Below, in pieces: positions 1-55,295 of a DNA stretch of 64,000 nt. This DNA comes from Elusimicrobiota bacterium (lineage in GTDB: Bacteria; Elusimicrobiota; Elusimicrobia; UBA1565). The notes under the pieces were generated by a model. That model did not search any database, was not told the DNA's origin, and was given only the letters and a program-made list of their open reading frames with translations. The stretch lies in NCBI GenBank assembly GCA_043827405.1, contig JBDRPD010000053.1:96221-160220 (forward strand), read 5' to 3'. Every line of letters starts with the position of its first letter. Within the stretch, counting starts at the first letter, position 1. The position numbers were made by a program, and so were the translations under genes.

Positions 1-613
1 ACCAAGCTCCACAGCGGAGCGCAGTCGGAGCGCAGACCTTTGAGCCCCATTTGGTGCCGTCGCGACAGCACGGCAGCGCCGTGGTCGCCGACGGTCCCGT
101 TGATGAGGATCCGGTCGCCGGCGCGAATCCCCTCCGGCCCCAGCGCGGAGCGCCGTCCGAGCTCGCCGACGCCCGCAGTGTTGATAAAGAGGCGGTCGAC
201 GCCGCCGCGCTCCACCACCTTGGTATCGCCGGTCACGATGCGGACTTCCGCCTCCCGCGCCGTCTCGCCCACCGAGCGCAGGATGCTCCGCAGAAAATCA
301 AACTCCAGCCCCTCTTCAATGACGAGCCCCAGCGACAGGTACCGCGGCGTCGCTCCCGCGGCGGCGAGGTCGTTGACCGTACCGCAGACCGCCAGCCGGC
401 CGATATCCCCGCCGGGAAATACCGCGGGGCTCACCGTATAGGTATCGGTGGTGAAGGCGAGACGTCCGGGAGCCGGCTCGATCTCGGCGGAGTCCCCCAG
501 CCGCCGCAGAATCGGATCAGGCAGAGCGCGGACGATCTCGCCCACCAGCTCATGCGAGAGCCGGCCGCCGCTGCCGTGCGCCAAGAGAATCCGCTCAGTT
601 TTCCCGGCCATAC
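1..613 (-). CDS. hypE: Hydrogenase maturation protein HypE (carbamoyl dehydratase), 3'-truncated by the window start
   Basis: Hand translation of the minus strand from the ATG at about 613 gives MAGKTERILLAHGSGG..., the HypE N-terminal motif. The ORF track missed it because no stop codon lies inside the window. It overlaps the hypD stop, consistent with translational coupling in a hypFCDE order. Confidence 0.8.
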
Positions 614-1686
614 TTGTAATACGCCGCGCAGGTCCCTTCGCTTGAAACCATGCATGCCCCGACGGGCGCGAGCGGAGTGCATACGCCGGCGAAGAGCGGG
701 CAGTCCGGAGGCTTGCGCACCCCTTTGAGAATATCTCCGCACATGCAGCCGGAATCAGTCCGCTCGGCTTCGACCTCGACTTCGATTCCCTGCTCCGCGT
801 CGAAAGCCGCGAACTCCGGGCGCAGCGCGAGCCCGCTCCCGGGAATCACGCCGATCCCCCGCCATGCCGCGTCGCATGGCTGGAAGACCCGGCTCATCGC
901 CGCCATCGCTTTAGGGTTGCCCTCGGGCCGCACGCTCCGCTTATAGGCGTTCTCCAGCTCGCTGCCGCCGGAAACGACCTGCCGCGCCAAAGAGAGGACG
1001 CCGCGCGCGATATCCAACGGCTCGAAACCCGCGACCGCGCAGGGGATATTGAACTCCGAGGCGAGAAATCCGTAGGGCGCCGTACCGATAATAGTGCTCA
1101 CATGCCCGGGCAGCAGCAGCCCCTGCACGCGGATATCCGGATCCTGCGCCAGCGCCCGCAGCGCGGGCGGCACGAGCTTATGCCCGCTGTAGACGAAATA
1201 GTTCGTCAGTCCGGCATCATGGGCCGCGATGACCGACGCCGCCACGCTCGGCGTCGTCGTCTCGAAACCGACGCCCAGAAAAACGACTTTTTTACCGGGG
1301 TTCTCACGCGCGATCGCCGTCGACTCCAGCGCCGAGTAAACGGTGCGCACGTCCGCCCCCGCCGCCCGCTCCTGCTCCAGGCTCGACGACGAGCCCGGAA
1401 CGCGGTACATGTCGCCGAAGGTGACCACGATCACGTCCGGCCGCCGGCAGAAAGCGATCGCGCGGTCCATATAGCCGTTGGCGGTAACGCACACCGGGCA
1501 GCCCGGGCCCGAGAGAAGCTCCAGCTGCCGCGGGAAAATCTGCCGCAGACCGCTGCGAAACAGCGCCACCGTATGCGTTCCGCAGACCTCCATCAGGACC
1601 GCGGACTTGCCGTCGAGCGCCTCGGCGATCAGCCGGACCGCAGCCTGCACCGCATCCGCCTGACGGTACTCGTCAAGAAACTTCAT
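595..1686 (-). CDS. hypD: Hydrogenase maturation factor HypD
   Basis: 363 aa carrying the HypD motifs CGTH, GPGCPVC and GFETT and a C-terminal CPxC. The start is an ATG. Confidence 0.9.
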   Translation of the reverse strand: MKFLDEYRQADAVQAAVRLIAEALDGKSAVLMEVCGTHTVALFRSGLRQIFPRQLELLSGPGCPVCVTANGYMDRAIAFCRRPDVIVVTFGDMYRVPGSSSSLEQERAAGADVRTVYSALESTAIARENPGKKVVFLGVGFETTTPSVAASVIAAHDAGLTNYFVYSGHKLVPPALRALAQDPDIRVQGLLLPGHVSTIIGTAPYGFLASEFNIPCAVAGFEPLDIARGVLSLARQVVSGGSELENAYKRSVRPEGNPKAMAAMSRVFQPCDAAWRGIGVIPGSGLALRPEFAAFDAEQGIEVEVEAERTDSGCMCGDILKGVRKPPDCPLFAGVCTPLAPVGACMVSSEGTCAAYYKYGREN

Positions 1687-1913
1687 GCGCTTTCCTCAGC
1701 GTCTCCCGTCAACCGCTGAATCAGCTTGCGGTCTTCCGCCGCCTGCTCCCGATCCAATTTCTGGATGGCAAAACCGGCATGCACGATCACGTATTCTCCC
1801 GGTTGGGGATCATCCACCAGGTCCAGGCGGACATCCTTCTCAACCCCGCCCATACGGACCGTTCCGACCTCGCCGTTCACGGCGACCAGCTCCATAGGAA
1901 TCGCAAGACACAT
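1683..1913 (-). CDS. hypC: Hydrogenase assembly chaperone HypC
   Basis: 76 aa beginning MCLAIP, the HypC/HupF signature with N-terminal Cys2. It overlaps the hypD start by 4 nt. Confidence 0.85.
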   Translation of the reverse strand: MCLAIPMELVAVNGEVGTVRMGGVEKDVRLDLVDDPQPGEYVIVHAGFAIQKLDREQAAEDRKLIQRLTGDAEESA

Positions 1914-1918
1914 ATTTA

Positions 1919-4210
1919 TTAATCCGCAAATAATCCGGCGGCCATCACCTGGCCCAAGCAGATACCCCCGTCATTGGGCGGCACTTGCCGGTGCATCAGC
2001 ACGCGAAAGCCGGCTTCCTCCAAACGACGCGAGCTCCATTCTAACAAAAGCGCGTTCTGGAACACGCCGCCGGTCAGGGCCGCCGTCTCCAGGCCGGTTT
2101 CGTCGCGCACCGCGCAGCATGCGGCGGCCGTCATATCGGCGACCGCGGCATGAAACCGCGAAGACATGATATCCGGCGCCGCGCCGCGCCGCAGGTCCTC
2201 GACGACGGCCCGCACCATGGGCACGGGATCAAGGACCAGCAGCCCTTCCGCTTTCTCCAGCGCATAGGGATACGCCCCTTCCTCCCCCGCGGCGGCCGCC
2301 TCCAGCTCAATTGCCGCCTGGCCCTCATAGCGTATCTCGCGGCGCAGGCCGATAATCGCCGCGACCGCGTCAAACAGGCGGCCCATGCTCGAAGTCAGCG
2401 GGCTGTTAAGGTTCCGGTCGATCATCTTGTCGAGCACCGCCCATTTATCCCGGTCGAGCTTGCGCACAAAATCGATATCCAGCTCCAGGAATTCCGCGCC
2501 GAACGCTTCGCGCAGCCACACCGCGCCCATGCGCCACACCTCACGCACCGCCGCGTCGCCGCCCGGCAGCGGGACCGTCCGGAGACGCGCCGCCCGCCGG
2601 TATCCCTTGAAGTCCGCGGCCAGCAGTTCACCCCCCCAGACCGTCGCATCGTCGCCGCGGCCGGCGCCGTCGAAGACCACGCCGATGACCGTCTGCGACA
2701 CCCCGTTGTCCGCCATACAGGAGGCGACATGCGCATGGTGATGCTGCACCTTAACGAGCTCAGCGTCCGGCAGCCGCGCGCACAGCTTTTCCGCGTACTG
2801 CGTGGAGAGGTAATCCGGGTGCAGGTCGCAGGCGATGCGGCGCGGCTTAATGGTCAATAGCCGCGCCAGATGATCTACCCCTCGCTCGAATGCGTCAAGC
2901 GTCTCCAGGTTCTTCAGGTCGCCGATGTGATGGCTCAGATAGGCGTCGGACCCGCGTCCCAAGCAGAAGACGCTTTTAAGCTCGCCCCCGCAGGCGAGGA
3001 CCGGCTCCTTGAGCGTCCCCGGCAGGCGGATGGGCGCCGGAGCATAGCCCCGGGAGCGGCGGAGCAGGCGCTCCTCTCCGCGAAAAACGCGACTCACCGA
3101 ATCGTCGCACCGCGTTTCGATGCCGCGATCATGCAGCACAAACGCATCCGCGATCCCTCCCAGCCGCGCCAGAGCTTCTTCGTTAATATGAGCTATCGGC
3201 TCGTCGCTGACATTCCCGCTCGTCATGACCAGGACTTCCGGGCAGCCGCCGGCGAACAGCAGCGAATGCAGCGGCGCATACGGGAGCATGCAGCCCAAGC
3301 GCTTCTGCCGCGGCGCGACCGACGGCGCCAGCGCCGCCGCCTCTACCCGCTCCAGCAGCACGATCGGCCGGGCGACCGACTCAAGGAGAGCGGCCTCCTC
3401 GCGGCTTACGCGGCAGCAGCGCCGCACCGCGGCGGCAGCGCCGGCCATCACGGCGAAGGGCTTGTCTTCCCGGTACTTGCGGCCGCGCAATGCGCCGACG
3501 GCGCGCTCGTCAAACGCGCTGCAGGCGAGATGGAAGCCCCCGATCCCCTTCACCGCGAGGATATTGCCGTCGCGCAACAGCGCCGCAGCCCGAGCCACGA
3601 TTTCAAGGGAATCGCCCTCGATGACCGGTCGGCCGGCGGCATCCGTAAGCCGCAGCCGCGGTCCGCAAACGGCGCAGGCATTGGGCTGCGCATGGAAGCG
3701 GCGGTTTTCCGGGTCCTCGTACTCGGCGAGGCATTCCGGACACATGTGAAACGACGCCATAGCGGTCGCCGGACGGTCGTAGGGAACGCTGCGCACTATG
3801 GTAAAGCGCGGGCCGCAGTTGGTGCAGTTCAGGAAGGGGTAGCCGCGGCGCCGGTCGGCGGGATCGGCGAGCTCCCGCAAGCACTCCCCGCACGTCGCGA
3901 GATCGGGGGAAACATCGGCCAGCGCCTGCGCCGAGCCGGTGCTGGGCAGGATGCGGAAGTCCTCATCCTCAGCCGGCTCAACCTCCCGGGAGGTCAACGA
4001 CTTGATGCTCGCCTGCGGCGGCGGCTCAAGCTCGAGCACGCGCAGAAATTCCTGCACCTTCGCGGGGGGGCCCTGCACCTCGATGCGGACCCCGTCGGAG
4101 GTATTGCTGATCCAGCCGCGCAGGCCGCGCCTCCGGGCCTGCCGGTACACGGCGGGCCGGAAACCGACTCCCTGTACGCGTCCGCGTACCTCGATGCGCA
4201 GCCGCTTCAT
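1919..4210 (-). CDS. hypF: Carbamoyltransferase HypF
   Basis: 763 aa with an N-terminal acylphosphatase-like domain (VRGRVQGVGFR), two CxxC zinc-finger pairs, and YrdC-like and Kae1-like domains. Confidence 0.9.
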   Translation of the reverse strand: MKRLRIEVRGRVQGVGFRPAVYRQARRRGLRGWISNTSDGVRIEVQGPPAKVQEFLRVLELEPPPQASIKSLTSREVEPAEDEDFRILPSTGSAQALADVSPDLATCGECLRELADPADRRRGYPFLNCTNCGPRFTIVRSVPYDRPATAMASFHMCPECLAEYEDPENRRFHAQPNACAVCGPRLRLTDAAGRPVIEGDSLEIVARAAALLRDGNILAVKGIGGFHLACSAFDERAVGALRGRKYREDKPFAVMAGAAAAVRRCCRVSREEAALLESVARPIVLLERVEAAALAPSVAPRQKRLGCMLPYAPLHSLLFAGGCPEVLVMTSGNVSDEPIAHINEEALARLGGIADAFVLHDRGIETRCDDSVSRVFRGEERLLRRSRGYAPAPIRLPGTLKEPVLACGGELKSVFCLGRGSDAYLSHHIGDLKNLETLDAFERGVDHLARLLTIKPRRIACDLHPDYLSTQYAEKLCARLPDAELVKVQHHHAHVASCMADNGVSQTVIGVVFDGAGRGDDATVWGGELLAADFKGYRRAARLRTVPLPGGDAAVREVWRMGAVWLREAFGAEFLELDIDFVRKLDRDKWAVLDKMIDRNLNSPLTSSMGRLFDAVAAIIGLRREIRYEGQAAIELEAAAAGEEGAYPYALEKAEGLLVLDPVPMVRAVVEDLRRGAAPDIMSSRFHAAVADMTAAACCAVRDETGLETAALTGGVFQNALLLEWSSRRLEEAGFRVLMHRQVPPNDGGICLGQVMAAGLFAD

Positions 4211-4316
4211 GTGCTAACCATTATCGCCTATAGTGGGCGCAGAGGGATACAGCGTCAAGCAACCGTTCTCCGCTGGTATTGACGCCGTAACGCTTCGCCT
4301 TTACCCTAATAGCGAA

Positions 4317-7300
4317 ATGGCCAAATCCGTAGCCGCCGGCCGGGGGCTCCTTTTCTGCCTCCTGGCGGGCGCGTTGTTATTGTGCGGCTTACCGGCTGAG
4401 CTTTTCGCCCAGCACGGCAAGCTCTCACCGCGCCTGCGCACCATGCGCCGGCAGGCCGCTGAGGGCCGTCCCGTCACCGGCTTCGGCGTCGCCGCGGACG
4501 CCGGCACGGCGGATCCCATCGTCAGCCTGCTGCTGCGCCTGCGCCCGGGAGCGACCCGGGAAGCCGTCGTCGCGCGCTATCCCGGCTCCCACTTCGGCGT
4601 CCTCAACGGACGCATCCTGACGGCTCGTCTACGCGCCTCGCTGCTGGACGCCATCGACACCGACCCGGACGTGGACTACGCCGAGTCGCCGGCGCGCTAT
4701 GAGCCCGCGCTTGAGATCGCGAAGTCCTCCACCACCAGCGGCTCCGTCTACCTCGGCATCCTCGATCCCAGCTCGGTGGACTTCGGCGCCAATAAGGGCC
4801 AGGGCGTGGTGATCGGCTTCGTCGACACCGGCATCGACTGGGACCACTACGACTTCCGCGACGACGTCAATGTACTGCAAAGCCGCATTCTCTCCATCTG
4901 GGACCAGACGATAGCCTCCCATGGCGGCGGGCCCAACCCCGCGGGCTACGCCTACGGCGCGGAGTACACCCAAACCCAGATCAACAATGAAATCGACGGC
5001 CTCCCCGCCGGCGTCCTGCAGACCCTGGACACCAACGGCCACGGCTCCCATGTCGCCGGCATCGCGGCGGGCGACGGCAGCGACTCGGACGGCAGCCCCG
5101 CCGCCGGCACCTATAGCGGCATCGCACCCCAAGCCGATATCATCATGGTCAAGACCAGCTTCATCCCCAGCGACATCCTCGACGGCGTCAACTATATCGT
5201 CGGCAAAGCCGCCGCCGCGGGCAAGCGCGCCGTCGTCAACCTCAGCATCCAGGGCCAAAGCGGCGCCCATGACGGCACGCTGAGCTTCGAGCAGGGAATC
5301 AATACCGTTGCCGCCAGCACGCCGGTAGTCATCGCCATGGGCAACTATCACGACAAGAGCGACCATGCGCTCTACACCTTCGCCCCCAGCGGCATCCACA
5401 GCTTTACGGCCAGCCGGATCCTCGCGGCCTCAACTTTGGAGTTTGAGTTCTGGGCCGCCACCGGCGACGCCTACGACCTGACCATCACCGACGGCATCAA
5501 CACCCCGGTCTCGGTCTCCAACAACCAGGACAAGACCAGCCAGGCCATGGGCACCGCCTCTCTCGATATCTACAACGGGACCAACTCGCACCCCGGCGGC
5601 GACAAGCAGATTCTGATCACCATCACCGGCACCATCAGCCAGAGCAACTTCACCTTCAGCTTCACCCGCGTCTCCAACGGCGGCACCGGCAAGCTGCACG
5701 GCTGGAATATCTACACCGACTACGCGAACTTTACCAGCGACGTCGACCTGACCAGCACGCTGACCTCCCCGTCGGTAATCGCCAACGGCATCGGCGTCGG
5801 TTCCTACTGCAGCAAACAGACCTGGTACGACGGCACCAATACCCAGCAGACCGACGCCTGCACTTTGGGTGAGATATCTTCTTTCAGCGGCCACGGCCCC
5901 ACGCGCGACGGACGGCAGAAGCCCGACATCGCGGCCCCCGGCCATCGCCTCGCCTCGACGCTGAGCACCGACTCCTCCGCGACTTCGGCCTATACCGCGC
6001 AGGACAACCGCCACTACCTCCGGCGCGGGACCTCGATGGCGGCGCCGGTCGTCGCCGGCGCGATCGCGGTGCGGATCCAGCAGAACTCAACGCTCACCGC
6101 CGCCCAGATCAAGTCCAACCTGCAAACCGATACCCACACCGATTCCATGACCGGCGCCAGCCTCCCCGACGGGACCTGGGGCTACGGCAAACTTAAGGTT
6201 TTGGCCTGCGGGAACACCGTCGACAGCGCGCCCTCGGCCGCCGTGCCGGTCACCCTGGGAGCTTCATCGATTTCCTGGACCTGGGGCGCGGTCACCAACG
6301 CCACGTCCTACAACATCTACTATGCCACCGATACGGGCACCCTGATCGCCAATGTCGCCTCCCCGGCCTACACCTTCACCAGCCTCGCGGCGAACACCGA
6401 CTACCGCCTCGAAATCCGCGGACAGAACATCTGCGGCGAGGGTACGGGCGGCGTCTCGCTGACCACGGCGACGCTCACCGTCCCGGTCTCCGGCAGCGGG
6501 ACCTTCGCTCAGGAGATCACGCGCGTCACCGTCGGCTACAGCAAGCTCAGCGGGCAGAACGAAGGCTATCTGCTGCATGCCTCGACCGCCGCCGACTTCA
6601 CCGGAACGATATTCTCCAGCTCCACGCCAAACTCGGACCTCGGCACTTTGCTGATCGAGGGCTTAAGCGGCTTCACCACCTACTACTTCCGCATCGGCAC
6701 GCTCAACCCGCAGGGCGCGTCGGTCTTCTCGACGCTCGGCTCGACTAGAACCGACACCACTTTGCTCGCTCCCGGCACGTCCACTTTTTCCAACATCTCG
6801 GAGAGCGCGCTGCGCGCGAACTGGACCCGCAACGGCAATCCGTCCGGGCTGCAGTATTTCGCGTACCTCTCGACGGCGGCGGACTTCAGCGGCACGCTGC
6901 TGACCGAACAGACAAGCGGCCTTTACGCCGACTTCTCGAGTCTGTCGGCCAACGCCACCTATTATTTCCAGGTCCGCCCGGCCACCGGCCCATTCGGCGC
7001 AGCCTCATCGACGGCCACCCATGCCCTGGCGCCCGGCGCCGTCACGCCGGCCTTTACCGGCGTCTACCTGTCCAGCGTCACGGCCTACTGGACCGACGGC
7101 GGCAACCCCTCCGGCACCTGGATGCTGGTTGAGTCCTCGACCGAAGCCGGCTTCGGGACACTGATCGACTCATCGAGCACCCAGAATACCTCGCGCCTGC
7201 TGACCGGCGTCTGGACCAATACCACGGTCTACGTGCGGGTCTCGGCGCTCAACCGCCACGGCATCCCCACATCCTATCTGACGCTCTCGACGGCCACTAT

Positions 7301-8327
7301 GGCCAATCCGCCCGGCCTTGTCGCCGCGCCGTTCGCCAGCGTGACCTCGTCGATCACGGTGCGCTGGACGCCGCTGCCCACATCCCCCTCTTCGGCGGCC
7401 TGCCAGGGCTATCAGGTGGAGGCCTCCACCTCGCCCACGTTTTATCCGATCGCCACCGCCAACCGCACCGCCGATGCGGCCGCGAGCTCGCTGGGAGTGG
7501 AGGGCCTGCTGTTTCAGACGACGTATTACCTGCGCGTCGGCGCGGTCAACCTCAACGGCGTCCCCACCTTCACCAACTTGGGCTCCAGCGTAACCGTGAT
7601 AGCGATACTCTCCAGCAGCACGCTCAACGGGAGCGAGCTGACGCTGTCCATCCTGCCGTCGGTACTGCAGCTCCAATACGTCGAGGTGAATATCCCGCCC
7701 GGCACGCTGCCGGACGGGGTGAGCGTCACCGTCAACGCGAGCGTGCCTTTTGATTTCGACTCATCGGCGGTCAAGCAGGTAAACCTGACCCCGCTGGGCG
7801 CCGGCGTCGCCATCGATATCGACGCGCAGGGAAATCAGCCGCTGGGTCCGGTGGCGATCCGTATGGACTACGATCCCGCCTTCCTGCCGCCCGGCGTCAG
7901 CAAGCACCAGCTGGTCATCGCGCACCTGCGCGACGGCTACTGGGACGTGCTGGAAACGGAAAACGACACCGCCGGCAATGTCCTGCGGGCGCAGACCCGG
8001 CACTTCTCGCTGTTCGCGCCGTTCTATGTCGCCGCGGGCACGGCGCTGGATAATGTGCAGATCTTCCCGATCCCCTGGATGCCGGGCTCCGGAGACGCCA
8101 ATTACGACGCGCCCAAGCTGAGCATCATGAATCTCCCCGCGGGAGGAAGCGTTCAGCTCTATTCCATAATCGGCGAATCGCTCGGCACCTGGGACGCGAG
8201 CGCCGCCGGCATGGTCTACTGGGACGGAAAATCCAAGCGCGGCATGGAAGCCGGCTCCGGGACCTACCTGGTCGTCATCTCCGGGGCGGGCGCGCGCCGG
8301 GTCGAGCGCGTGGTGGTTATCCGATGA
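4317..8327 (+). CDS. Secreted subtilisin-like serine protease (S8 family) with multiple fibronectin-III-like repeats and a T9SS-type C-terminal sorting domain
   Basis: The catalytic triad motifs are present: VIGFVDTGID (Asp), HGSHVAGIAAG (His) and GTSMAAPVVAG (Ser). A signal peptide begins at the ATG at 4317 (MAKSVAAGRGLLFCLLAGALLLC); the track start at 4233 is a GTG extension. Repeated roughly 90-aa Ser/Thr-rich modules follow (SISWTWGAVTNATSYNIYYA...). The C-terminus (VQLYSIIGESLGTWDASAAGMVYWDGKSKRGMEAGSGTYLVVISGAGARRVERVVVIR) matches the type-A Por/T9SS C-terminal domain, which is FlgD-Ig-like. Confidence 0.8.
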   Translation: MAKSVAAGRGLLFCLLAGALLLCGLPAELFAQHGKLSPRLRTMRRQAAEGRPVTGFGVAADAGTADPIVSLLLRLRPGATREAVVARYPGSHFGVLNGRILTARLRASLLDAIDTDPDVDYAESPARYEPALEIAKSSTTSGSVYLGILDPSSVDFGANKGQGVVIGFVDTGIDWDHYDFRDDVNVLQSRILSIWDQTIASHGGGPNPAGYAYGAEYTQTQINNEIDGLPAGVLQTLDTNGHGSHVAGIAAGDGSDSDGSPAAGTYSGIAPQADIIMVKTSFIPSDILDGVNYIVGKAAAAGKRAVVNLSIQGQSGAHDGTLSFEQGINTVAASTPVVIAMGNYHDKSDHALYTFAPSGIHSFTASRILAASTLEFEFWAATGDAYDLTITDGINTPVSVSNNQDKTSQAMGTASLDIYNGTNSHPGGDKQILITITGTISQSNFTFSFTRVSNGGTGKLHGWNIYTDYANFTSDVDLTSTLTSPSVIANGIGVGSYCSKQTWYDGTNTQQTDACTLGEISSFSGHGPTRDGRQKPDIAAPGHRLASTLSTDSSATSAYTAQDNRHYLRRGTSMAAPVVAGAIAVRIQQNSTLTAAQIKSNLQTDTHTDSMTGASLPDGTWGYGKLKVLACGNTVDSAPSAAVPVTLGASSISWTWGAVTNATSYNIYYATDTGTLIANVASPAYTFTSLAANTDYRLEIRGQNICGEGTGGVSLTTATLTVPVSGSGTFAQEITRVTVGYSKLSGQNEGYLLHASTAADFTGTIFSSSTPNSDLGTLLIEGLSGFTTYYFRIGTLNPQGASVFSTLGSTRTDTTLLAPGTSTFSNISESALRANWTRNGNPSGLQYFAYLSTAADFSGTLLTEQTSGLYADFSSLSANATYYFQVRPATGPFGAASSTATHALAPGAVTPAFTGVYLSSVTAYWTDGGNPSGTWMLVESSTEAGFGTLIDSSSTQNTSRLLTGVWTNTTVYVRVSALNRHGIPTSYLTLSTATMANPPGLVAAPFASVTSSITVRWTPLPTSPSSAACQGYQVEASTSPTFYPIATANRTADAAASSLGVEGLLFQTTYYLRVGAVNLNGVPTFTNLGSSVTVIAILSSSTLNGSELTLSILPSVLQLQYVEVNIPPGTLPDGVSVTVNASVPFDFDSSAVKQVNLTPLGAGVAIDIDAQGNQPLGPVAIRMDYDPAFLPPGVSKHQLVIAHLRDGYWDVLETENDTAGNVLRAQTRHFSLFAPFYVAAGTALDNVQIFPIPWMPGSGDANYDAPKLSIMNLPAGGSVQLYSIIGESLGTWDASAAGMVYWDGKSKRGMEAGSGTYLVVISGAGARRVERVVVIR

Positions 8328-9349
8328 GGGGCGCGCTCCTGCTGCTGGCGCTTGCCCTTCCCGCGAGCGCGTCGATCAGCAACACCGGCGGGTCGACGGC
8401 GCAGTTCCTGCGCATCGGCGCCGGCGCCCGGGCGCTGGGCATGGGAGACGCCTTCAGCGCCGTAGCCGAAGGCCCGGCCGCCATATACTGGAATCCCGCC
8501 GGCCTCGCGCAGCAGCGCCGGCCCGAACTCGGCTACACCCACATCGAGCTTCTGGATTTTTTCCATCACGAGCATATCGCCTACGCGCATCCCATTCCCC
8601 TGCTGCGCGGAACGCTCGGGACGGCGCTGACCTTCTTCTACGAGGACCGGCAGGATCTGGTCACCAACCGCAATGTGAAGGTCGGAACCTTTAAAAACCA
8701 CAGCGAAGTGTTCGCCTTCGCCTATGCGCGCGCATTCCGCATCGGCCACGACTGGGGGATGAGCGACCGCGACGCCTTCGCCGATCTCTGGCGCCTGGGC
8801 GGAGCGGAAATGCCCCTGCGGCCGGCGGACGAGATATGGAACGGCAACCTGCTGCTGGGGCTGTCCCTTAAAGGGGTGCGCAGCACGCTCTATGATCGCT
8901 CCGCGACGGCCTTCGCGGTGGACGGCGGCGCGATCTTCCGTCATTACGCGCTGTCCAAGATGAGTCTCAGCTTCGTTTTTCGCAATATCGGCACCAAGCA
9001 CCGCTTTATCAATAAGGCGCAGGACCTGCCCGCCGAGTTCTCGTTCGCCGCGGCCTTCGATCAGCGCTGGGACCGGCACCGCGTCCTGCCGGTCTTTGAA
9101 TGCGTGGTCCCCGTCTACGGCGTACCGACGGGGAGGCTGGGGGTGGAGTACAGTTTCCCGGTGAGCGACGACGCCTACGCCGCGGTGCGCGCCGGCTACA
9201 AATCCCTGCAGGCGCATGAGATCGGCGCGCTGTCCGGCTTGACCGGAGGCATCGGCTTCGGCTACCGGCACCTCTCGGTCGACTTCGGCCTGCAGCCGAT
9301 GGCGGTGCTGGGCGAAGCCTTCCGCGCCGAGATTTCCTACCGTTTCTAG
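8324..9349 (+). CDS. PorV/PorQ-family outer-membrane beta-barrel protein (candidate T9SS cargo shuttle)
   Basis: It has a signal peptide followed by the family-typical N-terminal motif GGSTAQFLRIGAGARALGMGDAFSAVAEGPAAIYWNPAGLA, and ends in a Phe (...ISYRF) as outer-membrane barrels do. Its ATG overlaps the protease TGA (ATGA). Confidence 0.55.
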   Translation: MRGALLLLALALPASASISNTGGSTAQFLRIGAGARALGMGDAFSAVAEGPAAIYWNPAGLAQQRRPELGYTHIELLDFFHHEHIAYAHPIPLLRGTLGTALTFFYEDRQDLVTNRNVKVGTFKNHSEVFAFAYARAFRIGHDWGMSDRDAFADLWRLGGAEMPLRPADEIWNGNLLLGLSLKGVRSTLYDRSATAFAVDGGAIFRHYALSKMSLSFVFRNIGTKHRFINKAQDLPAEFSFAAAFDQRWDRHRVLPVFECVVPVYGVPTGRLGVEYSFPVSDDAYAAVRAGYKSLQAHEIGALSGLTGGIGFGYRHLSVDFGLQPMAVLGEAFRAEISYRF

Positions 9350-9400
9350 CTGCCTACCGGGGACTGGAAGCCTCAACCCCTTAGTCCATCGAGGCAGCTT

Positions 9401-9452
9401 GCCCCGACGACGACAGGATACTGCGCTGATGCGAAACTGTCGTCGTCGGGGC
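9401..9452. terminator. GC-rich 16-bp perfect hairpin between convergent genes (putative bidirectional terminator, no U-tract)
   Basis: Stem gccccgacgacgacag (9401-9416) pairs with ctgtcgtcgtcggggc (9437-9452) around a 20-nt loop. It sits just after the PorV-like stop and abuts the stop of the minus-strand ORF 9452..9691. Confidence 0.35.
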
Positions 9453-9691
9453 TAGCTGATGCTGATCGGAGGGAAGTCCCCTTTCGACCAGCGGACGTCG
9501 CCGTCCGGTCCGACGAAGTAGTACAGCGGCATGCCCCGGACGCGGCACAGCTTCGCGACGCGGCCGTCCGCATCGAGCAGCATCTTGTACTCCACCTTGC
9601 TGCCGCGCAGATAGCCGACGGTGCGCGGGCGCTGCCCGTTCTGGAACAGCTTCGTCCCGATCAGTTCTTCTTCAACTTTTTTTATCTTCAT
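9452..9691 (-). pseudogene. TlpA/ResA-like thioredoxin-fold C-terminal fragment (79 aa), probably a truncated gene remnant
   Basis: The C-terminal segment KMLLDADGRVAKLCRVRGMPLYYFVGPDGDVRW resembles the end of TlpA/ResA thiol-disulfide oxidoreductases (VLDTD..YxV..PTTFLI..GKV). The CxxC-containing N-terminal half is absent. The first roughly 10 codons are AT-rich while the rest is GC-rich, suggesting a junction-derived start. Confidence 0.35.
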
Positions 9692-9914
9692 AGGATTACC
9701 TTGCAGACAGTGTACTCCGGGACGGGTTTTTCACTATGAAGCGAAGGGGCAGGCAGATTCGGGTATTGGCTCCAGAACGGCCTATTCCTAAACTCTCACT
9801 AATGTGAAATGGAAGTTCACAGCGGGGAGCGGCTTCCGCATGATTTTTGCGCTCTGCGGACGCTATTGTTAGGGCGCTCAGTCTGGAACTTAACTTGCTC
9901 CTCATTCGTATATA

Positions 9915-10454
9915 TTGGGAGTGGCGTCCTCAAAAGTCCCTATAGTCACACCTTCGCTATATTTTATCCGGGGACAGCAGGTGATCCTGGACTCGGATCT
10001 GGCGGTGTTGTTCGGTGTCTCGACGAAACGGCTTAACGAACAAATCCGGCGCAACCGAGATCGCTTCCCTGTTGATTTCGCATTTCGCCTAAATTCGACC
10101 GAATCCGAATTTTTGAGGTCGCAAATTGCGACCTCAAAAAAAGGACGCGGAGGCCGTCGATATTTGCCTTTCGTGCTGACTGAACACGGAGTTGTAATGG
10201 CGGCGAACGTGTTGAACTCAGTTCGGGCAGTCGCCATGAGTGTTGAAGTCGTAAGGGTTTTTGTCCGGTTTCGCAAAGCACTTCATTCCCGAGGCTCTCT
10301 CGCGAAGAAGCTTGAACAGCTCGAACAGGCAGTAAAAACGCGTTTAGACAAGAACGACACGGAAATCGAAGAATTATTCCAGGCCGTTGAATCGCTCATA
10401 AACATTAATGTCGATAGTCCTGGTCCAAATAGAAAAATAGGATTTGTTCCATGA
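9915..10454 (+). CDS. ORF6N domain protein (KilA-N-like DNA-binding; phage antirepressor-related family)
   Basis: FIRGQQVILDSDLAVLFGVSTKRLNEQIRRNRDRFPVDFAFRL...LRSQIATSKKGRGGRRYLPFVLTEHGVVMAANVLNS matches the ORF6N family consensus. The C-terminal half is coiled-coil-like. The start is non-ATG (TTG at 9915 or GTG at 9921). Confidence 0.7.
   Translation: MGVASSKVPIVTPSLYFIRGQQVILDSDLAVLFGVSTKRLNEQIRRNRDRFPVDFAFRLNSTESEFLRSQIATSKKGRGGRRYLPFVLTEHGVVMAANVLNSVRAVAMSVEVVRVFVRFRKALHSRGSLAKKLEQLEQAVKTRLDKNDTEIEELFQAVESLININVDSPGPNRKIGFVP
10110..10140. repeat. 31-nt perfect palindrome TTTTTGAGGTCGCAAATTGCGACCTCAAAAA inside the ORF6N CDS
   Basis: Read directly from the sequence. It encodes the conserved LRSQIATSK motif. 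Both strands have the T-run upstream and the A-run downstream of the stem, so it is not a canonical intrinsic terminator in either orientation. Confidence 0.6.
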
Positions 10455-10538
10455 ATCGCTCTAACGGGGGCGCAAATACTGCGGGGTGGCAGGCCCAGAC
10501 ACCATATGAGCCCGGGATGAGGGATTGGCGGCAGCCGC

Positions 10539-11399
10539 TCAGAACGGCATAACCTTGCGCACCACCGTCTCGATCAGAAAGAACGCCGTATCGGGTCCCT
10601 TGCGGTCGGTGGTGCAGACGTCCGCCGCCTGCACGCTCTGAATCAAATGCGGGTAGTACTCGCGCAGCTCAAGCTCGGAGGCGCGGGTAAACAGATGCTG
10701 CTTCATCATGATGCCGCCGCGCCGGTCTCCCATCTGGTCCCACAGCTTGCGCAGGCCGTCGAGGTTGGGATCGTAGTAGTCGGTGCGGGGATAGAGGTAC
10801 ACCTTGCCCGCATTAGGGCAGTAGTACTCCCCCTTCTTGTCCTCGGAGACGAGCTTTACCTTGAGCAGACGCTTGAGCGACTTCTTCACCACCGGCTGCT
10901 GAAATCCCGTCGCCTTGGCGAGCTCCGCGACGCTCCAATGCCCGATGTCGTTGGCCAGCACCGTAAACACCCAGTAGAGCTCGGATGACGAGTTCACGCA
11001 GGAGGCCTGCTCTTTGGTGAAGGGGATGCTGCGCGCCTCGTAGTTGCGCACCATGGCCTTGCGCAGCGGCGCCACCGGGACCTCGGCCGAACGCACCGTG
11101 GAGGTCATGGCGCTGACGATGAGCTTGAACAAGCTCTCCGTTCCGACCAAGCTCTTAAGATAGGACTCGACGAACTCCTTGCGCCGCGAGGCGTCGTAGG
11201 GCAGGCGCAGGGCCTGCGAGATCTTTTCGACCAGCTTGGCCCCGGGCGCCGACACGCCCTTCTCCACGTTGAGGTACTGCCGGTAGGTGCAGCCGAAAAA
11301 AACCCGGCCGCCGGAATCCTGATAGAACGAGCGCGCCGAGTTATGCCCCGCGTCCGACCTCAGCGTCTGCAGCGTATTGGAAAAATATTCCCAGGACAT
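10539..11399 (-). CDS. Hypothetical protein with a predicted winged-helix DNA-binding region
   Basis: The GC-rich ORF has a likely ATG start at 11399 (MSWEYFSNTL); the track's 11438 is a TTG extension. The segment ELAKATGFQQPVVKKSLKRLLKVKLV resembles a wHTH. No confident family assignment. Confidence 0.45.
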   Translation of the reverse strand: MSWEYFSNTLQTLRSDAGHNSARSFYQDSGGRVFFGCTYRQYLNVEKGVSAPGAKLVEKISQALRLPYDASRRKEFVESYLKSLVGTESLFKLIVSAMTSTVRSAEVPVAPLRKAMVRNYEARSIPFTKEQASCVNSSSELYWVFTVLANDIGHWSVAELAKATGFQQPVVKKSLKRLLKVKLVSEDKKGEYYCPNAGKVYLYPRTDYYDPNLDGLRKLWDQMGDRRGGIMMKQHLFTRASELELREYYPHLIQSVQAADVCTTDRKGPDTAFFLIETVVRKVMPF

Positions 11400-11403
11400 A
11401 GGG

Positions 11404-11901
11404 TCACCTGTAGTTCTCGAACTGCAGCGCCAGGCCAAAGTCCTTGCCCTTGAGAAAGGAGATCGCCTCCTGCAGCTCGTCTTTCGATTTGGCCGTCACC
11501 CGCAGCTGGTCCTTCTGGATGGACGCCTGGACCTTCAGCTTGGTCTTCTTGAGCTCTTTGACGATCTCTTTAGCCTTATCGGAAGGAATTCCCTGCGTGA
11601 TCTTGACGAGCATCCGCGCCGTACCGCCGAGGGCGCTTTCCACCTTCTCATCGACGAAATTCTTCAGCGGTAGTTCGCGCTTGGCCAGCCGCATATTGAG
11701 CACATCCAGCAGCGCCTTCACCTTGAAATCGTCGGTGGACTGCAGCGTCAAAACCGCCGCCTTCTGATCATATTCAATCGTGGATTTGGTGCCGCGGAAG
11801 TCATAGCGATTGCCGATCTCCTTGAGCGCGACCTGAACGCAGTCGCCGATCGCGTGCATGTCGACCTTGGATACGACGTCGAACGAGAATTCCTTTGCCA
11901 T
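11404..11901 (-). CDS. yajQ: YajQ-family (UPF0234) nucleotide/c-di-GMP-binding protein
   Basis: 165 aa beginning MAKEFSFDVVSKVDMHAIGDCVQVALKEIGNRYDFRG, the typical YajQ N-terminus. An ATG start with a GGAG Shine-Dalgarno upstream. Confidence 0.8.
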   Translation of the reverse strand: MAKEFSFDVVSKVDMHAIGDCVQVALKEIGNRYDFRGTKSTIEYDQKAAVLTLQSTDDFKVKALLDVLNMRLAKRELPLKNFVDEKVESALGGTARMLVKITQGIPSDKAKEIVKELKKTKLKVQASIQKDQLRVTAKSKDELQEAISFLKGKDFGLALQFENYR

Positions 11902-11906
11902 AGCTC

Positions 11907-13568
11907 CTACTCCAGTCCCATGGGAATTTTTACGCCCTTCTTGCGCGCCACCGCTTTGGCTTCGTCGTAGCCGGCGTCCACATGGCGCGCCACGCCGATA
12001 CCCGGGTCATTATTGAGCACCCGGTCCAGCCGCACCGCCATCTCGGGCGTGCCGTCGGCCACGATGACTTGTCCGGCATGCAGAGCGTAGCCGATGCCCA
12101 CGCCGCCGCCGTGATGGAAACTGACCCAGGAGGCGCCGGACGCCGTATTGAGCAGGGCATTGAGTATCGGCCAGTCGGCGATCGCGTCCGAGCCGTCCTT
12201 CATCGCCTCCGTCTCGCGGTAGGGGCTGGCCACCGAACCGCAGTCCAAATGGTCGCGCCCGATCACGATCGGCGCCGAGATCTTTCCTTCCTTTACCAGT
12301 TCATTGAAGCGCAGCCCGGCTTTGGCGCGGTCCCCCATGCCCAGCCAGCATATGCGGCAGGGAAGGCCCTGGAACTGGACCTTCTCCTGCGCCATCAGGA
12401 TCCACCGCGCCAGCGACTTATCCTCGGGAAAAAGCTCGAGGATGGCCTTGTCGGTCTCCGCGATATCGGCGGGATCGCCCGAGAGCGCCGCCCAGCGAAA
12501 CGGCCCCTTGCCCTCGCAGAACAGCGGACGGATGAACGCCGGAACGAAGCCCGGGAAATCATAGGCGTTCTCCACCCCGGCCTTATGCGCCATGGTGCGG
12601 ATATTGTTGCCGTAATCGAAGGTAATGGCGCCCTGCTTCTGGAGCTCCAGCATCGCCCTGACATGGACGGCTATCGACGCCATGGAGCGCTTTTCGCAGC
12701 CCTTGGGATCGCGGTAGCGCAGGGCCGCCGCCTCTTCCAGGCTCAAGCCTTGCGGAATATAGCCATAGAGGGGATCATGCGCCGAAGTCTGGTCGGTCAG
12801 CAGGTCGATCTCGATGCCGCGCTTGGCGATTTCCGGCAGCAGCTCGGCGGCGTTGCCCAGCAGACCGACCGACAGCGGCTCCTTCTTGCGCTTGGCCTCC
12901 AGCACCAGCTCCAGCGCCTTATCCAGATCCGTCTCCATGCGGTCGATATAGCGCGTCTCCAGGCGCTTCTTGATGCGCTCTGGATCGACTTCGATCCCGA
13001 GAAAACTGGCGCCGCACATGGTCGCGGCCAGCGGCTGGGCGCCGCCCATGCCGCCCAGGCCGGCGGTCACCAGCAGCCGGCCCTCCAGCGTGCCGCCGAA
13101 ATGCTGCCGCGCGGCTTCGGCGAAGGTCTCGTAGGTGCCCTGCAGAATACCCTGCGTTCCGATGTAAATCCAGGAGCCGGCGGTCATCTGGCCGAACATT
13201 ATGAGCCCCTTCTTCTCGAGCTCGTTGAAAACGTCCCAGTTCGCCCACTCCCCGACCAGATTGGCATTGGCGATCAGCACCCGGGGAGAATGCTCATGGG
13301 TGCGGAACACCCCGACCGGCTTGCCGGACTGAATGAGCAGCGTCTCGTCGTTCTCCAGCTTGCGCAGGCAGTCGACGATGGCATGGTAGCACTCCCAGTT
13401 GCGGGCCGCCTTGCCCCGCCCGCCATAGACCACCAGATCCTGCGGGCGCTCGGCCACCTCGGGATCAAGATTATTCATCAGCATGCGCAGCGCCGCTTCC
13501 TGCTGCCAGCCCTTGCAGGTCAGCTGCGAGCCGCGCGGCGCACGAATCGCCGTTTGCGTTGCCGTCAT
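11907..13568 (-). CDS. hutU: Urocanate hydratase
   Basis: 553 aa with strong urocanase similarity across its length ([43 protein letters not shown]-binding GLGGMGGAQ). Confidence 0.9.
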
Positions 13569-44932: not shown

Positions 44933-46369
44933 ATGCCGAAATTTTCAGGATCGCGTCCGCCGGCGGTGGCGGGACGCTTCTACCCCGGCGATCCCGGCAA
45001 GCTCAGGACCGAAGTCGACGGCATGCTCGATGCCGCGCCGGACCCCGTCCCCGACGACAACGCGGTCGGCGGCGTCTCCCCGCATGCCGGCTACGCTTTT
45101 TCGGGCCGCCTCGCGGCGCGCGTCTGCAAAGCGCTCAAGCACAAGCGGCCCAAGACCATAGTGCTGCTCGGCACGGCGCATCACGAGGAGGTCGGCGGCC
45201 TCGCCCTGCCGGATACCGCCTCCTTCGCGACCCCGCTGGGCGAGGTCCCGGTCGATACCGGGATGGCGGAGGCCCTGCTGGCCGCCCACCCGGAAGTCAA
45301 AATCTCCCCCGCCGCCCATGCGCGCGAGCATTCACTTGAGGTCCAGCTCCCCTTTCTCCAACGCGCCCATGAAGGCGCCCATATCCTGCCGCTGCTCACC
45401 GGAGTCAAAAACCGGGGCTCCGCGGAGGAGCTCGGCCGGGAGCTCGGCCGGCTCATTAAGGAAAGAGACGCTTTACTGATCGTAGCCACCGACCTTTCGC
45501 ATTTCCCCTCCGATTCCGGAGCGCGGCGCAGCGACCTCGCCTTGCTGGCGGCGCTGGAAAAAATGGATGCGGATTTCCTCTGGGACGCCGATCGCGCCCT
45601 AATGCGTCTGGACATCCCGCAGCTGCACTGCACCGCCTGCGGCCTCGGCGCCGCGGCCGTCGGAATCACGGCCTGCCTGGAGCTGGACGCCGGCGTCTGC
45701 GAGGTCCTGCAGTACGCCAATTCCTATGACATCTCCGGCGACGCCGAACGGGTCGTGGGCTACGGCGCCGCGCTGTTTAAGAAGGGCGCGCGGCCGGACG
45801 GCCCCTTCTTCGGCCTGGGCGAGCAGGAAAAGTCGGCGCTCCTCAAGCTGGCGCGCGCGGCCCTCGCTGAATACCTGCGCACGGGAAAAGAGCCGGCGCC
45901 GCGCGCTTTCGACCTGCCCCTGCTCAATCTGCCCGGGGCGGCTTTCGTAACCTGGACCGAACGTTCGGCCTCCGCCGAACGCGAGCTGCGCGGCTGCGTG
46001 GGAACGACCCTGCGCGACCGGACGATCGGCAACTGCGTCGCCCATTTCGCCGTCCGCAGCGCCGTCTCCGACACGCGCTTTACTCCCGTCGCCGCGGCGG
46101 ACCTGCCCGCGCTGCATGCCGAGGTCTCGGTGCTCTCACCGTCCCGGCCATCCACCGCCGAGGCCGTCCGCCCCGGCCAGGGCGTGGTCTTCGAGCTCGG
46201 CCGCGCCCGCGGGCTGTTTCTGCCCCTGATGTGGGAGCGCTACCCGGACAAGGAAAAGTTCATGAACGTCCTCGCCGGCTCCAAGGCCGGCGCCCGGGAA
46301 GATGCCTGGAGAGATCCCGCGGCCAAGCTCTGGACCTTCGAAGCGGAGGCGTTCGGCGAAGAAGAATGA
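44933..46369 (+). CDS. AmmeMemoRadiSam system fusion protein: Memo-like (protein B) N-terminal domain fused to AMMECR1 (protein A) C-terminal domain
   Basis: The N-terminus AGRFYPGDPGKL...HAGYAFSG matches Memo/MEMO1-family motifs. The C-terminal half carries the AMMECR1 signature (LRGCVGTT...). It is translationally coupled (ATGA) to a radical SAM gene. Confidence 0.75.
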   Translation: MPKFSGSRPPAVAGRFYPGDPGKLRTEVDGMLDAAPDPVPDDNAVGGVSPHAGYAFSGRLAARVCKALKHKRPKTIVLLGTAHHEEVGGLALPDTASFATPLGEVPVDTGMAEALLAAHPEVKISPAAHAREHSLEVQLPFLQRAHEGAHILPLLTGVKNRGSAEELGRELGRLIKERDALLIVATDLSHFPSDSGARRSDLALLAALEKMDADFLWDADRALMRLDIPQLHCTACGLGAAAVGITACLELDAGVCEVLQYANSYDISGDAERVVGYGAALFKKGARPDGPFFGLGEQEKSALLKLARAALAEYLRTGKEPAPRAFDLPLLNLPGAAFVTWTERSASAERELRGCVGTTLRDRTIGNCVAHFAVRSAVSDTRFTPVAAADLPALHAEVSVLSPSRPSTAEAVRPGQGVVFELGRARGLFLPLMWERYPDKEKFMNVLAGSKAGAREDAWRDPAAKLWTFEAEAFGEEE

Positions 46370-55201: not shown

Positions 55202-55295
55202 CCTTATAAATATAGTGCGCTTCACGGCCGGCGGCAGGTGTCATCTGGGGCAGATTTCGCCGGCCAAACGCACTACTTATTGCGGGCCCAAGGGC

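Follow-up and report, generated by a model that had tools for sequence, protein, structure and literature searches.

Does a secreted protease whose tail looks like the tails on type IX secretion system (T9SS) proteins, and whose gene runs into that of a PorV-like outer-membrane barrel, possess a barrel of its own, and does such a pair exist outside the Bacteroidota? The question is raised by two genes in a 64,000-nucleotide stretch of DNA from an Elusimicrobiota bacterium (GenBank assembly GCA_043827405.1, contig JBDRPD010000053.1, positions 96,221 to 160,220), here called the window, whose own numbering we use below. The first gene (4317..8327 including the stop codon, + strand) encodes, by its open reading frame (ORF) and translation, a secreted S8 (subtilisin-family) protease of 1336 amino acids (aa), the cargo. 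The second (8324..9349 including the stop codon, + strand) encodes a 341-aa outer-membrane beta-barrel of the PorV/PorQ family. A first-pass annotation, made from the letters alone, described the two genes as overlapping by ATGA, and they do so at 8324..8327 (+ strand), where the ATG of the barrel gene lies over the stop codon of the protease gene. It also proposed that they form a dedicated export module of a cargo and a PorV paralogue.

Our analysis directly supports the identities of the domains, the coupling of the two genes, the conservation of the pair across phyla with exchangeable heads, and the co-divergence of tail and barrel. As far as sequence comparison can tell, a dedicated cargo-barrel module outside the Bacteroidota is supported, reframed as an anchor or carrier similar to PorZ-PorQ and not as a PorV shuttle reserved for one cargo within a demonstrated type IX system. 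The placement of the organism outside the Bacteroidota, which the annotation had only entertained, is confirmed: the barrel is 100% identical to the hypothetical protein ABIJ96_09330 of an Elusimicrobiota metagenome-assembled genome (MAG), and the locus is syntenic with those of other Elusimicrobiota MAGs. Elusimicrobiota is a phylum of its own.

The barrel is a PorV/PorQ-family protein of its own subfamily

The family assignment made in the first-pass annotation holds. The barrel scores 117.2 bits on the NCBIfam model for the PorV/PorQ family (NF033709), which has a cut-off of 90, and the quoted motif, RIGAGARALGMGDAFSAVAEGPAAIYWNPAGLA, is present in the gene product. The same protein stays far below the equivalog models (PorV NF033710, 43.1 bits against 250; PorQ NF033711, 60.7 against 220; PorV2 NF052325, 48.5 against 325), and with 15.6 bits it does not reach the gathering cut-off of 27 of the Pfam PorV model (PF19572). 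Ten related barrels behave alike: they score 116-242 bits on NF033709, all above its cut-off, but stay short of every equivalog model. Of these models, PorQ fits best for six of the ten and also for the window barrel. The conserved N-terminal motif of the family (FLRIGAGARALGMGDAFSAVAEGPAAIYWNPAGLA; aa 28-62, 8405..8509, + strand) aligns to PorV residues ~25-65 and holds 14 of 37 columns invariant across 20 homologues, and its segment ARA-G-G...WNPA is invariant across the same 20. When a profile of these homologues was compared with all PDB sequences, PorV was the sole match.

The predicted structure points the same way. The AlphaFold model (predicted local distance difference test, pLDDT, 81.7) is a FadL-like barrel of 14 strands, and its best fold match is Flavobacterium johnsoniae PorV (8gl6_F, E 6e-12, template-modelling (TM) scores 0.69/0.64). 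The first 22 residues have low pLDDT; aa 1-16 (MRGALLLLALALPASA, with S as the next residue; 8324..8371, + strand) read as a signal peptide, predicted from the sequence, and the C-terminus is ...SYRF. Because the family model is passed, the equivalog cut-offs are missed and PorV is the nearest fold, the barrel is a member of the PorV/PorQ family with a subfamily of its own and is neither a PorV nor a PorQ orthologue.

An alternative explanation is that the protein has no functional tie to the protease and serves as a channel of the FadL type for hydrophobic molecules, or in some other housekeeping role in the outer membrane; the first-pass annotation had itself named a FadL or other non-PorV affiliation as the result that would count against it. 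PorV-family barrels are homologues of FadL, the next-best fold matches of the model are FadL and TodX, and there is a weak match to Pfam Toluene_X. However, the fold similarity to PorV (TM 0.69) is clearly above that to FadL and TodX (~0.5), and the adjacency, strand order and 4-nt overlap with the cargo gene are kept across phyla together with the co-divergence described below. We therefore regard a channel unrelated to the protease as highly improbable.

The tail of the protease is of the PorZ/PorU type

The last domain of the protease (aa 1247-1336, 8055..8324, + strand) has the fold of type IX tails, is most similar to those of PorZ and PorU, and ends ...RVVVIR. The first-pass annotation had called it a canonical type-A sorting domain, to be checked with TIGR04183. 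This description does not stand: on TIGR04183, whose cut-off is 23, the isolated last 92 residues reach 14.2 bits, the model is not reported for the full-length protease, no match to PF18962 was found, and the tail also remains below threshold on Pfam Por_Secre_tail, FlgD_ig and CHU_C.

The relatives of this tail are more easily recognised. A profile seeded from the window tail recovered 53 tails from genes neighbouring related barrels, which with the window's own give 54 aligned tails. The C-terminus of the PorZ model is matched by 53 of these (E<=0.01; best E 9e-18), TIGR04183 by 45, the C-terminus of the PorU model by 29, FlgD_ig by 27 and Por_Secre_tail by 21; the type-B model TIGR04131 gives weak matches in five. 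On the window protease the profile itself matches with E 7e-20 at the extreme end of the ORF, the last residue of the domain being the last of the protein. Among PDB sequences the 54-tail profile finds PorZ first (5m11 residues 668-758, E 4e-17, whole domain covered), the match ending ...FAVIR where the window tail ends ...VVVIR; PorU (6za2) is second with E 1e-7, followed by weaker matches to FlgD and, at ~1e-3, to two F. johnsoniae substrate tails.

In its AlphaFold model (pLDDT 86.1) the window tail is a seven-stranded immunoglobulin (Ig)-like sandwich, which, with its position at the extreme C-terminus, is characteristic of type IX tails. The best superposition is again on the PorZ tail (5m11, E 5.5e-7, TM 0.77, 27% identity), with PorU next; other top matches are the tails of NucA, RemZ and RemA from the SprA-PorV translocon and those of mirolase and RgpB. 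The top database matches of a protein search seeded with the tail carry the name 'T9SS type A sorting domain-containing protein'. Profile and predicted fold together indicate that the window tail is a true, if divergent, member of the type IX tail superfamily, and that it is of the PorZ/PorU type and not a canonical type-A signal.

Tail and barrel recur as a unit across phyla

Apart from the identical protein, the barrel has ~90 further homologues with ~40-63% identity, and those whose source is named come nearly all from Elusimicrobia MAGs. A search of 1.84 billion cluster representatives with phmmer found 9,092 relatives at E<=1e-3, 2,328 at 1e-10 and 38 at 1e-30; given this steep fall, the subfamily of the window barrel appears to be small and the wider PorV/PorQ barrel family large. 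To place relatives in their gene context, species-representative genomes were scanned with the barrel alignment. The scan gave at least 570 matches, from which 80 loci were kept (labelled L with a number below), belonging to Elusimicrobiota, Poribacteria, Eisenbacteria, Ignavibacteria, Kryptonia, Marinimicrobia, Firestonebacteria, Zixibacteria and unclassified MAGs.

A large ORF (~150-3100 aa, several clipped by contig ends) is found directly upstream of the barrel gene, and on its strand, in 53 of the 80 barrel-seeded loci; the last ~95 aa of this ORF are homologous to the window tail. Single-sequence phmmer finds 40 tails, the query included, and the converged profile all 54, the window's own included. 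The 4-nt overlap between cargo and barrel is common to many of the paired loci. Five more loci, obtained by exact look-ups of barrel homologues, show the cargo with its tail followed by the barrel in every case. The repetition of the arrangement in 53 of the 80 loci and in all five independent look-ups argues that it is more than chance. The same architecture is present in Ignavibacteria, Kryptonia and Marinimicrobia (L065, L075, L079 and L047).

The junction itself is conserved. The sequence GGTGGTGGTGATCCG(A/G)TGAGG, at 8305-8330 of the window, recurs with minor variants in five related loci (L082-L086, 9981-10012) and encodes the ...VVVIR and stop codon of the tail over the start codon of the barrel. 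The GGTGG run within it might also serve the barrel gene as ribosome-binding site.

Counting from the tails gives a similar picture. Across all ORFs of the 80 loci there are 80 tail domains, each of them no more than 10 aa from the end of its ORF, and 58 are directly followed by a barrel gene. The correspondence is closest in the 30 Elusimicrobiota loci, which hold 31 tails and 32 barrels, and where 30 tails have a barrel no farther away than 1.6 kb; the 64 kb of the window contain exactly one of each. The tail-seeded protein search returned almost only fragments of 95-175 aa from Bacteroidota-related phyla, from which no gene context could be gained, though they helped to name the tail and went into the alignment for its structure model.

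Other arrangements exist as well. In Eisenbacteria one of ten tails is paired with a directly following barrel, and in five loci of this group (L039, L043, L054, L069 and L074) several tail-bearing proteins surround one barrel gene, which looks like a shared shuttle more than a one-to-one pair. In L005 (10001-12555) two barrel genes stand in tandem (10001-11008 and 11109-12173, + strand), and the gene of a 1735-aa tail protein on the opposite strand converges on the second. Pairing therefore does not always work through co-transcription.

Heads are exchanged, and tail and barrel diverge together

The protease joined to the window tail is a member of peptidase family S8. The first-pass annotation gave its length as 1330 aa, which has to be corrected to 1336, and its classification as a subtilisin is borne out. 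The longest frame of the ORF opens at a GTG at 4233; the ATG at 4317 is the likely start, since the N-terminus read from there resembles a Sec signal peptide, and the same 1336 aa were called independently on a metagenome contig of identical sequence. The predicted signal peptide (aa 1-31, MAKSVAAGRGLLFCLLAGALLLCGLPAELFA followed by QH; 4317..4409, + strand), read from the sequence by eye and not by a predictor, has a basic n-region, a hydrophobic core and a small-residue cleavage site. The S8 catalytic domain (Pfam PF00082, aa 161-615, 4797..6161, + strand) scores 103.9 bits against a cut-off of 21.8 and has a large insertion between the catalytic His and Ser. The catalytic triad and the oxyanion Asn are all in place (D170 at 4824-4826, H242 at 5040-5042, N308, and S573 at 6033-6035), within the motifs VDTGID, GHGSHVAG and GTSMAAP.

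Between the catalytic domain and the tail lie five fn3-like repeats, presumably a stalk (aa 644-719, 749-812, 826-902, 915-995 and 1010-1093; 6246..7595, + strand). The region has Pfam matches to fn3 and Pur_ac_phosph_N, and a self-profile search of the protease resolves the five repeats with E values of 1e-24 to 1e-36. They are followed by a pre-tail domain (aa ~1100-1240, 7614..8036, + strand) of unassigned family, delimited by phmmer alignments of relatives and with a weak PGF-pre-PGF match (E 0.19) as its sole family match. The alignments start at ~aa 800-1100 and reach the end of the protein, that is, the pre-tail domain is kept together with the tail.

The fn3 region, the pre-tail domain and the tail are common to cargo proteins whose heads differ. 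S8 heads are found in the window and in L003, L005, L007, L008, L026, L083, L084 and L085, M10 metallopeptidase heads in proteins of ~2125 aa (L082 and L086), Kelch/GlxA-like propellers in L037, L042 and L051, and heads of no recognisable family in L004, L006, L048 and L065.

Pairwise identities of tails and barrels in 52 pairs are strongly correlated (Mantel r = 0.77, a value reached in 0 of 2000 permutations). In the three genomes that carry two pairs each, every pair is nearest to a pair of another genome, for the tail and for the barrel alike, which shows that pairs duplicate and diverge as units. The co-divergence fits a specific recognition between the tail and its barrel, to judge from these sequence comparisons. 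Of the proposal in the first-pass annotation, the dedicated pair of cargo and PorV paralogue is thus upheld by the conserved adjacency and overlap, the variable heads, this correlation and the multiple pairs; the term export module is unproven.

The exchange of heads also bears on the notion that the pair is a counterpart of a porU-porV operon, in which the S8 protease would be a sortase that cleaves the tails of other substrates. The genes porU (PG0026) and porV (PG0027) are neighbours in Porphyromonas gingivalis, and here too a large peptidase with a PorU-like tail of the retained type is encoded directly 5' of a PorV-family gene; the match of the PorU tail to 29 of the 54 tails is in keeping with this. 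However, the head is of family S8 and not C25, and the PorU model matches nothing outside the tail. In sister pairs the head is an M10 peptidase, Kelch-like or unrecognised, which makes the peptidase a replaceable cargo, and the Elusimicrobiota flanks contain almost no orphan tail-bearing substrates on which a sortase could act. No C25 PorU sortase head was found among the heads examined, NF033707 matching only the tails of relatives. With heads that vary and no C25 match, we reject the idea of a PorU-like sortase, to which we give hardly any credence.

Could a further gene belong to the unit? Clustering of the neighbours in the 30 Elusimicrobiota loci revealed no conserved third gene: the barrel recurs in 30 and the C-terminal part of the cargo in 23, and no other cluster in more than seven. 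The minor neighbours that recur include metabolic genes and genes for sensor kinases and for a LuxR-type response regulator. The LuxR-type regulator (Response_reg and GerE domains) lies directly 5' of the cargo gene in L003 (4691-5674) and also in L004 and L005; the window does not have it. Pairs of the M10 type carry a gene of 252-266 aa without a Pfam match that overlaps the start of the cargo gene by 4 nt (L082 2818-3618, L086 2878-3636), and this gene may be a third component specific to the M10 subtype.

Possible routes across the outer membrane

In one explanation, a complete type IX system encoded elsewhere in the genome would count the protease among its ordinary substrates, and the barrel would be the general PorV shuttle of that system, adjoining one of its substrates by chance. 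The type IX fold of the tail, the PorV/PorQ affiliation of the barrel, and the presence of the same pair architecture in the Bacteroidota-related Ignavibacteria, Kryptonia and Marinimicrobia are all in its favour. The barrel, however, scores 43 bits on a PorV equivalog model with a cut-off of 250, and in several genomes there are at least two divergent barrels, every one of them adjoining a cargo of its own. The ratio of tails to barrels in Elusimicrobiota is ~1:1, and there are almost no orphan tails in the flanking sequence, which by a rough estimate amounts to ~450 kb. None of the 30 window proteins scanned besides the pair (of ~48 predicted in the 64 kb) is a type IX or type II component, and no type IX component is among the recurrent neighbours in the 30 Elusimicrobiota loci; the core genes in question are porK/L/M/N (gldK-N), sov/sprA, porU, porZ and porW. 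According to published surveys, type IX systems are confined to Bacteroidota and their relatives (PMC4793230, PMC11205867), the 2016 survey finding them in Bacteroidetes only (PMC4793230). Taken together, this makes an ordinary type IX substrate an unlikely description of the protease.

Another route is suggested by gene neighbourhoods. In this alternative the protease would pass the secretin of a type II secretion system and the barrel would capture its tail at the cell surface, so that the tail-barrel interaction would be used independently of type IX secretion. In the Elusimicrobiota MAG GCA_043819795.1 a complete gspC-M cluster lies between two cargo-barrel pairs on contig JBDREN010000071.1 (L082 1-21032, L083 1-21065). 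The cluster comprises gspC, D, E, F, G, H, possibly I, J, K and L/M; a pair with an M10 peptidase stands upstream of it, and an S8 pair follows 482 nt downstream on the same strand. This S8 pair is syntenic with that of the window, being followed by yajQ-hutU-hutH-RNase T-thiolase-CHASE2. A second case is L026 (1051-10825), from an unclassified MAG, where the barrel shares only 24% identity with the window's: here gspK, gspL/M, a 190-aa ORF and gspD are located directly 5', on the same strand, of an S8 cargo gene and its barrel gene. By a rough estimate, chance adjacency would be expected in ~0.05 of some 85 loci, and it is seen in two independent lineages. On the other hand, two lineages are all there are: the window, L084, L085 and the remaining scanned loci have no Gsp gene nearby, and the first three, which are syntenic, carry unrelated genes at that position. 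Gene neighbourhood is in any case weak evidence that a protein is a substrate, and we know of no type II substrate that bears a type IX-like tail. The link of the pairs to type II secretion is suggestive, not general, and as an account of the pair as a whole we consider feeding by type II secretion rather unlikely.

Finally, the barrel itself might be the channel through which the cargo passes the outer membrane, as in two-partner secretion. A self-contained unit of two genes without a conserved third partner would be in agreement with this; however, the modelled barrel is FadL-like, with 14 strands, a narrow lumen and no POTRA domain, and no member of this fold is known to us to translocate proteins. 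We deem this very unlikely.

Comparison with known pairs of surface protein and barrel

The closest parallels are the attachment of PorZ to PorQ and of PorU to PorV. Neither PorZ nor PorU loses its tail, and PorQ and PorV are the barrels that anchor them (PMC10202324, PMC12365241). In these, as we propose here, an uncleaved Ig-like C-terminal domain docks a surface protein on a 14-stranded barrel of the PorV/PorQ family. The resemblance is greatest to PorZ-PorQ, since the PorZ tail is the closest solved relative of the window tail by profile and by fold, and PorQ is the best-scoring equivalog of the barrel. The differences lie in the cargo, which here is an enzyme with exchangeable heads, whereas PorZ presents lipopolysaccharide and PorU is a C25 sortase; in the barrel, which misses the cut-offs of both PorQ and PorV; in the host, Elusimicrobiota; and in the presence of several pairs per genome. 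A further difference concerns gene order: porZ and porQ are unlinked, whereas the two genes here overlap in one operon.

In genetic logic, the pairs of type-B cargo and PorP/SprF barrel come closest, in that a cargo-specific barrel gene lies directly 3' of the cargo gene, as in the window. The gene of a type-B cargo is normally followed by that of its cognate barrel (PMC12618676), and in F. johnsoniae each such cargo needs its own barrel for secretion and anchoring, as described for SprB-SprF and Fjoh_3952-Fjoh_3951 (PMC12618676, PMC9143113). Both protein families differ, however: the tail here is type-A/PorZ-like and the barrel belongs to the PorV/PorQ family. The window tail has no match to TIGR04131 and the window barrel none to TIGR03519, on which one related barrel reaches 25.7 bits against a cut-off of 90.55.

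The first-pass annotation had contrasted the window pair with characterised Bacteroidota, where PorV would be a general shuttle encoded away from its cargo. All type-A tails are stated to be recognised by a single PorV (PMC12618676). As a rule for Bacteroidota barrels, encoding away from the partner is too simple, since type-B cargo adjoins its barrel gene (PMC12618676) and PorQ and PorV hold PorZ and PorU by tails that are retained (PMC10202324, PMC12365241). In the light of these precedents, and of the porU-porV gene pair, the logic of the window pair is a variant of a known one. With the PorV shuttle of the SprA/Sov translocon the window barrel shares family and fold, and the model of its cargo's tail resembles the substrate tails bound to PorV (8glk_D, 8gl8_D and 8gl6_D; PMC10994853). 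PorV, however, serves all type-A substrates, whose tails are cut by PorU, whereas here there is one barrel per cargo.

A FadL-family barrel serves as platform for a surface protein also in BamG-BamH of the Bacteroidota machinery for beta-barrel assembly (BAM), and BamG2-BamH2 is a paralogous pair encoded in one operon (PMC12578637). The partner in that case is a lipoprotein without a type IX-like tail, and relatives of the window barrel match the BamG model only weakly (28-36 bits against a cut-off of 250). There is also a similarity to the Treponema UPF0164 proteins (PF03687): the window barrel scores 20.6 bits, just under the cut-off of 21.4, and some relatives carry this domain in precomputed annotation. 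The UPF0164 proteins are PorV-family-like barrels in a lineage without a known type IX system, and we know of no tail-bearing cargo partner for them.

A probable cargo-specific anchor

We think it somewhat probable that the pair is a cargo-specific anchor or carrier unit of the PorZ-PorQ kind, which displays one enzyme on the cell surface. [quoted passage not shown] The nearest solved tails, those of PorZ and PorU, are uncut and dock on PorQ and PorV; for this reason the tail is expected to stay on the protease and to bind the extracellular loops of its own barrel, which would then act as cargo-specific carrier and anchor. The S8 head, with its intact triad, would be kept away from the membrane by the fn3 stalk, and through the ATGA overlap the two proteins would be synthesised at roughly matched levels. 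We thus infer the binding of tail and barrel, the retention of the tail and the surface location of the protease.

Several observations weigh against an anchor of this kind. Every curated tail model leaves the window's own tail under threshold, and two lysines conserved in the tails of relatives are arginines in it. In 22 of the 80 tails, mostly from Eisenbacteria and unclassified MAGs, no barrel is adjacent, and the frequency of pairing counted from the tails is partly biased because the loci were chosen through the barrel. Linked genes that are inherited together also predict the Mantel correlation, so contact between tail and barrel is not proven by it. An anchor, moreover, leaves unexplained how a folded protein of 140 kDa crosses the outer membrane; the crossing might use a type IX translocon whose genes lie elsewhere, type II secretion or another route.

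A variant of the anchor that dispenses with type IX secretion altogether holds that a PorV/PorQ-type barrel and a PorZ-type tail are self-sufficient for cargo-specific surface anchoring in Elusimicrobiota and further phyla outside the Bacteroidota-related group, perhaps fed by type II secretion, as the gsp clusters next to such pairs in two distant lineages suggest. We put this forward tentatively, as a possibility with the odds against it. If it were true, such a pair could be the ancestral module behind the type IX attachment complex.

As an anchor or carrier of the PorZ-PorQ kind, the pair would extend current accounts, in which one PorV serves all type-A tails and dedicated barrels are those of type-B cargo, PorZ-PorQ and PorU-PorV, all in Bacteroidota. 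The locus belongs with its relatives to a large conserved class, marked by joint inheritance of a PorZ-type tail and a PorV/PorQ-family barrel and by the swapping of enzyme heads, and the phyla that have it include Elusimicrobiota, Poribacteria and others without a reported type IX system. No description of such cargo-barrel pairs, nor any paper that links Elusimicrobia with PorV, turned up in the literature, which was searched for PorV-like pairs and for PorV or type IX secretion in Elusimicrobia. The NCBIfam names 'PorV2' and 'T9SS-dependent M6-like inactivated metalloprotease' may hint, as names alone, that a similar Bacteroidota pair is familiar to curators. Natural cognate pairs are numerous; what sets the recognition between tail and barrel can be compared among them, and they bear on whether PorV-family barrels can anchor or carry proteins without the SprA translocon. 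A potential use is as a compact two-gene cassette for surface display.

Surroundings of the pair in the window

The window has a guanine-plus-cytosine (GC) content of ~0.65. The two genes form no part of a longer gene group. Upstream of the pair, on the other strand, are hypD, hypF and other hyp genes. They belong to a divergent cluster for hydrogenase maturation (595-4210, - strand; L001 104-5887) that consists of hypF, hypC, hypD, hypE, hypA and a ParA/MipZ-like gene, the last probably hypB; syntenic relatives carry other genes in its place. A scan of 4000-10600 for promoters and terminators gave nothing convincing.

Downstream of the pair follow an ORF6N gene, yajQ, hutU, hutH, an RNase T-like gene, a thiolase gene and a CHASE2 cyclase gene. 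Between the barrel gene and yajQ lie the ORF6N-domain gene (9915-10454) and a 299-aa ORF without a family match (10539-11438, - strand). Neither is present in the syntenic loci L083-L085, and the GC content dips to 0.573 at 10001-12000, which suggests that this region is a small insertion. ORF6N is a domain of phage and mobile elements.

Two gene fusions lie farther from the pair. At 51935-55225 (- strand) a 1095-aa protein is encoded whose N-terminal half has no family match; a uridine kinase domain (577-766) and a cytidine deaminase of the dimer type (810-1088) follow, and for enzymes of pyrimidine salvage such a fusion is unusual. At 44933-46369 (+ strand) a 478-aa ORF fuses the AmmeMemoRadiSam system proteins B (8-282) and A (302-474).

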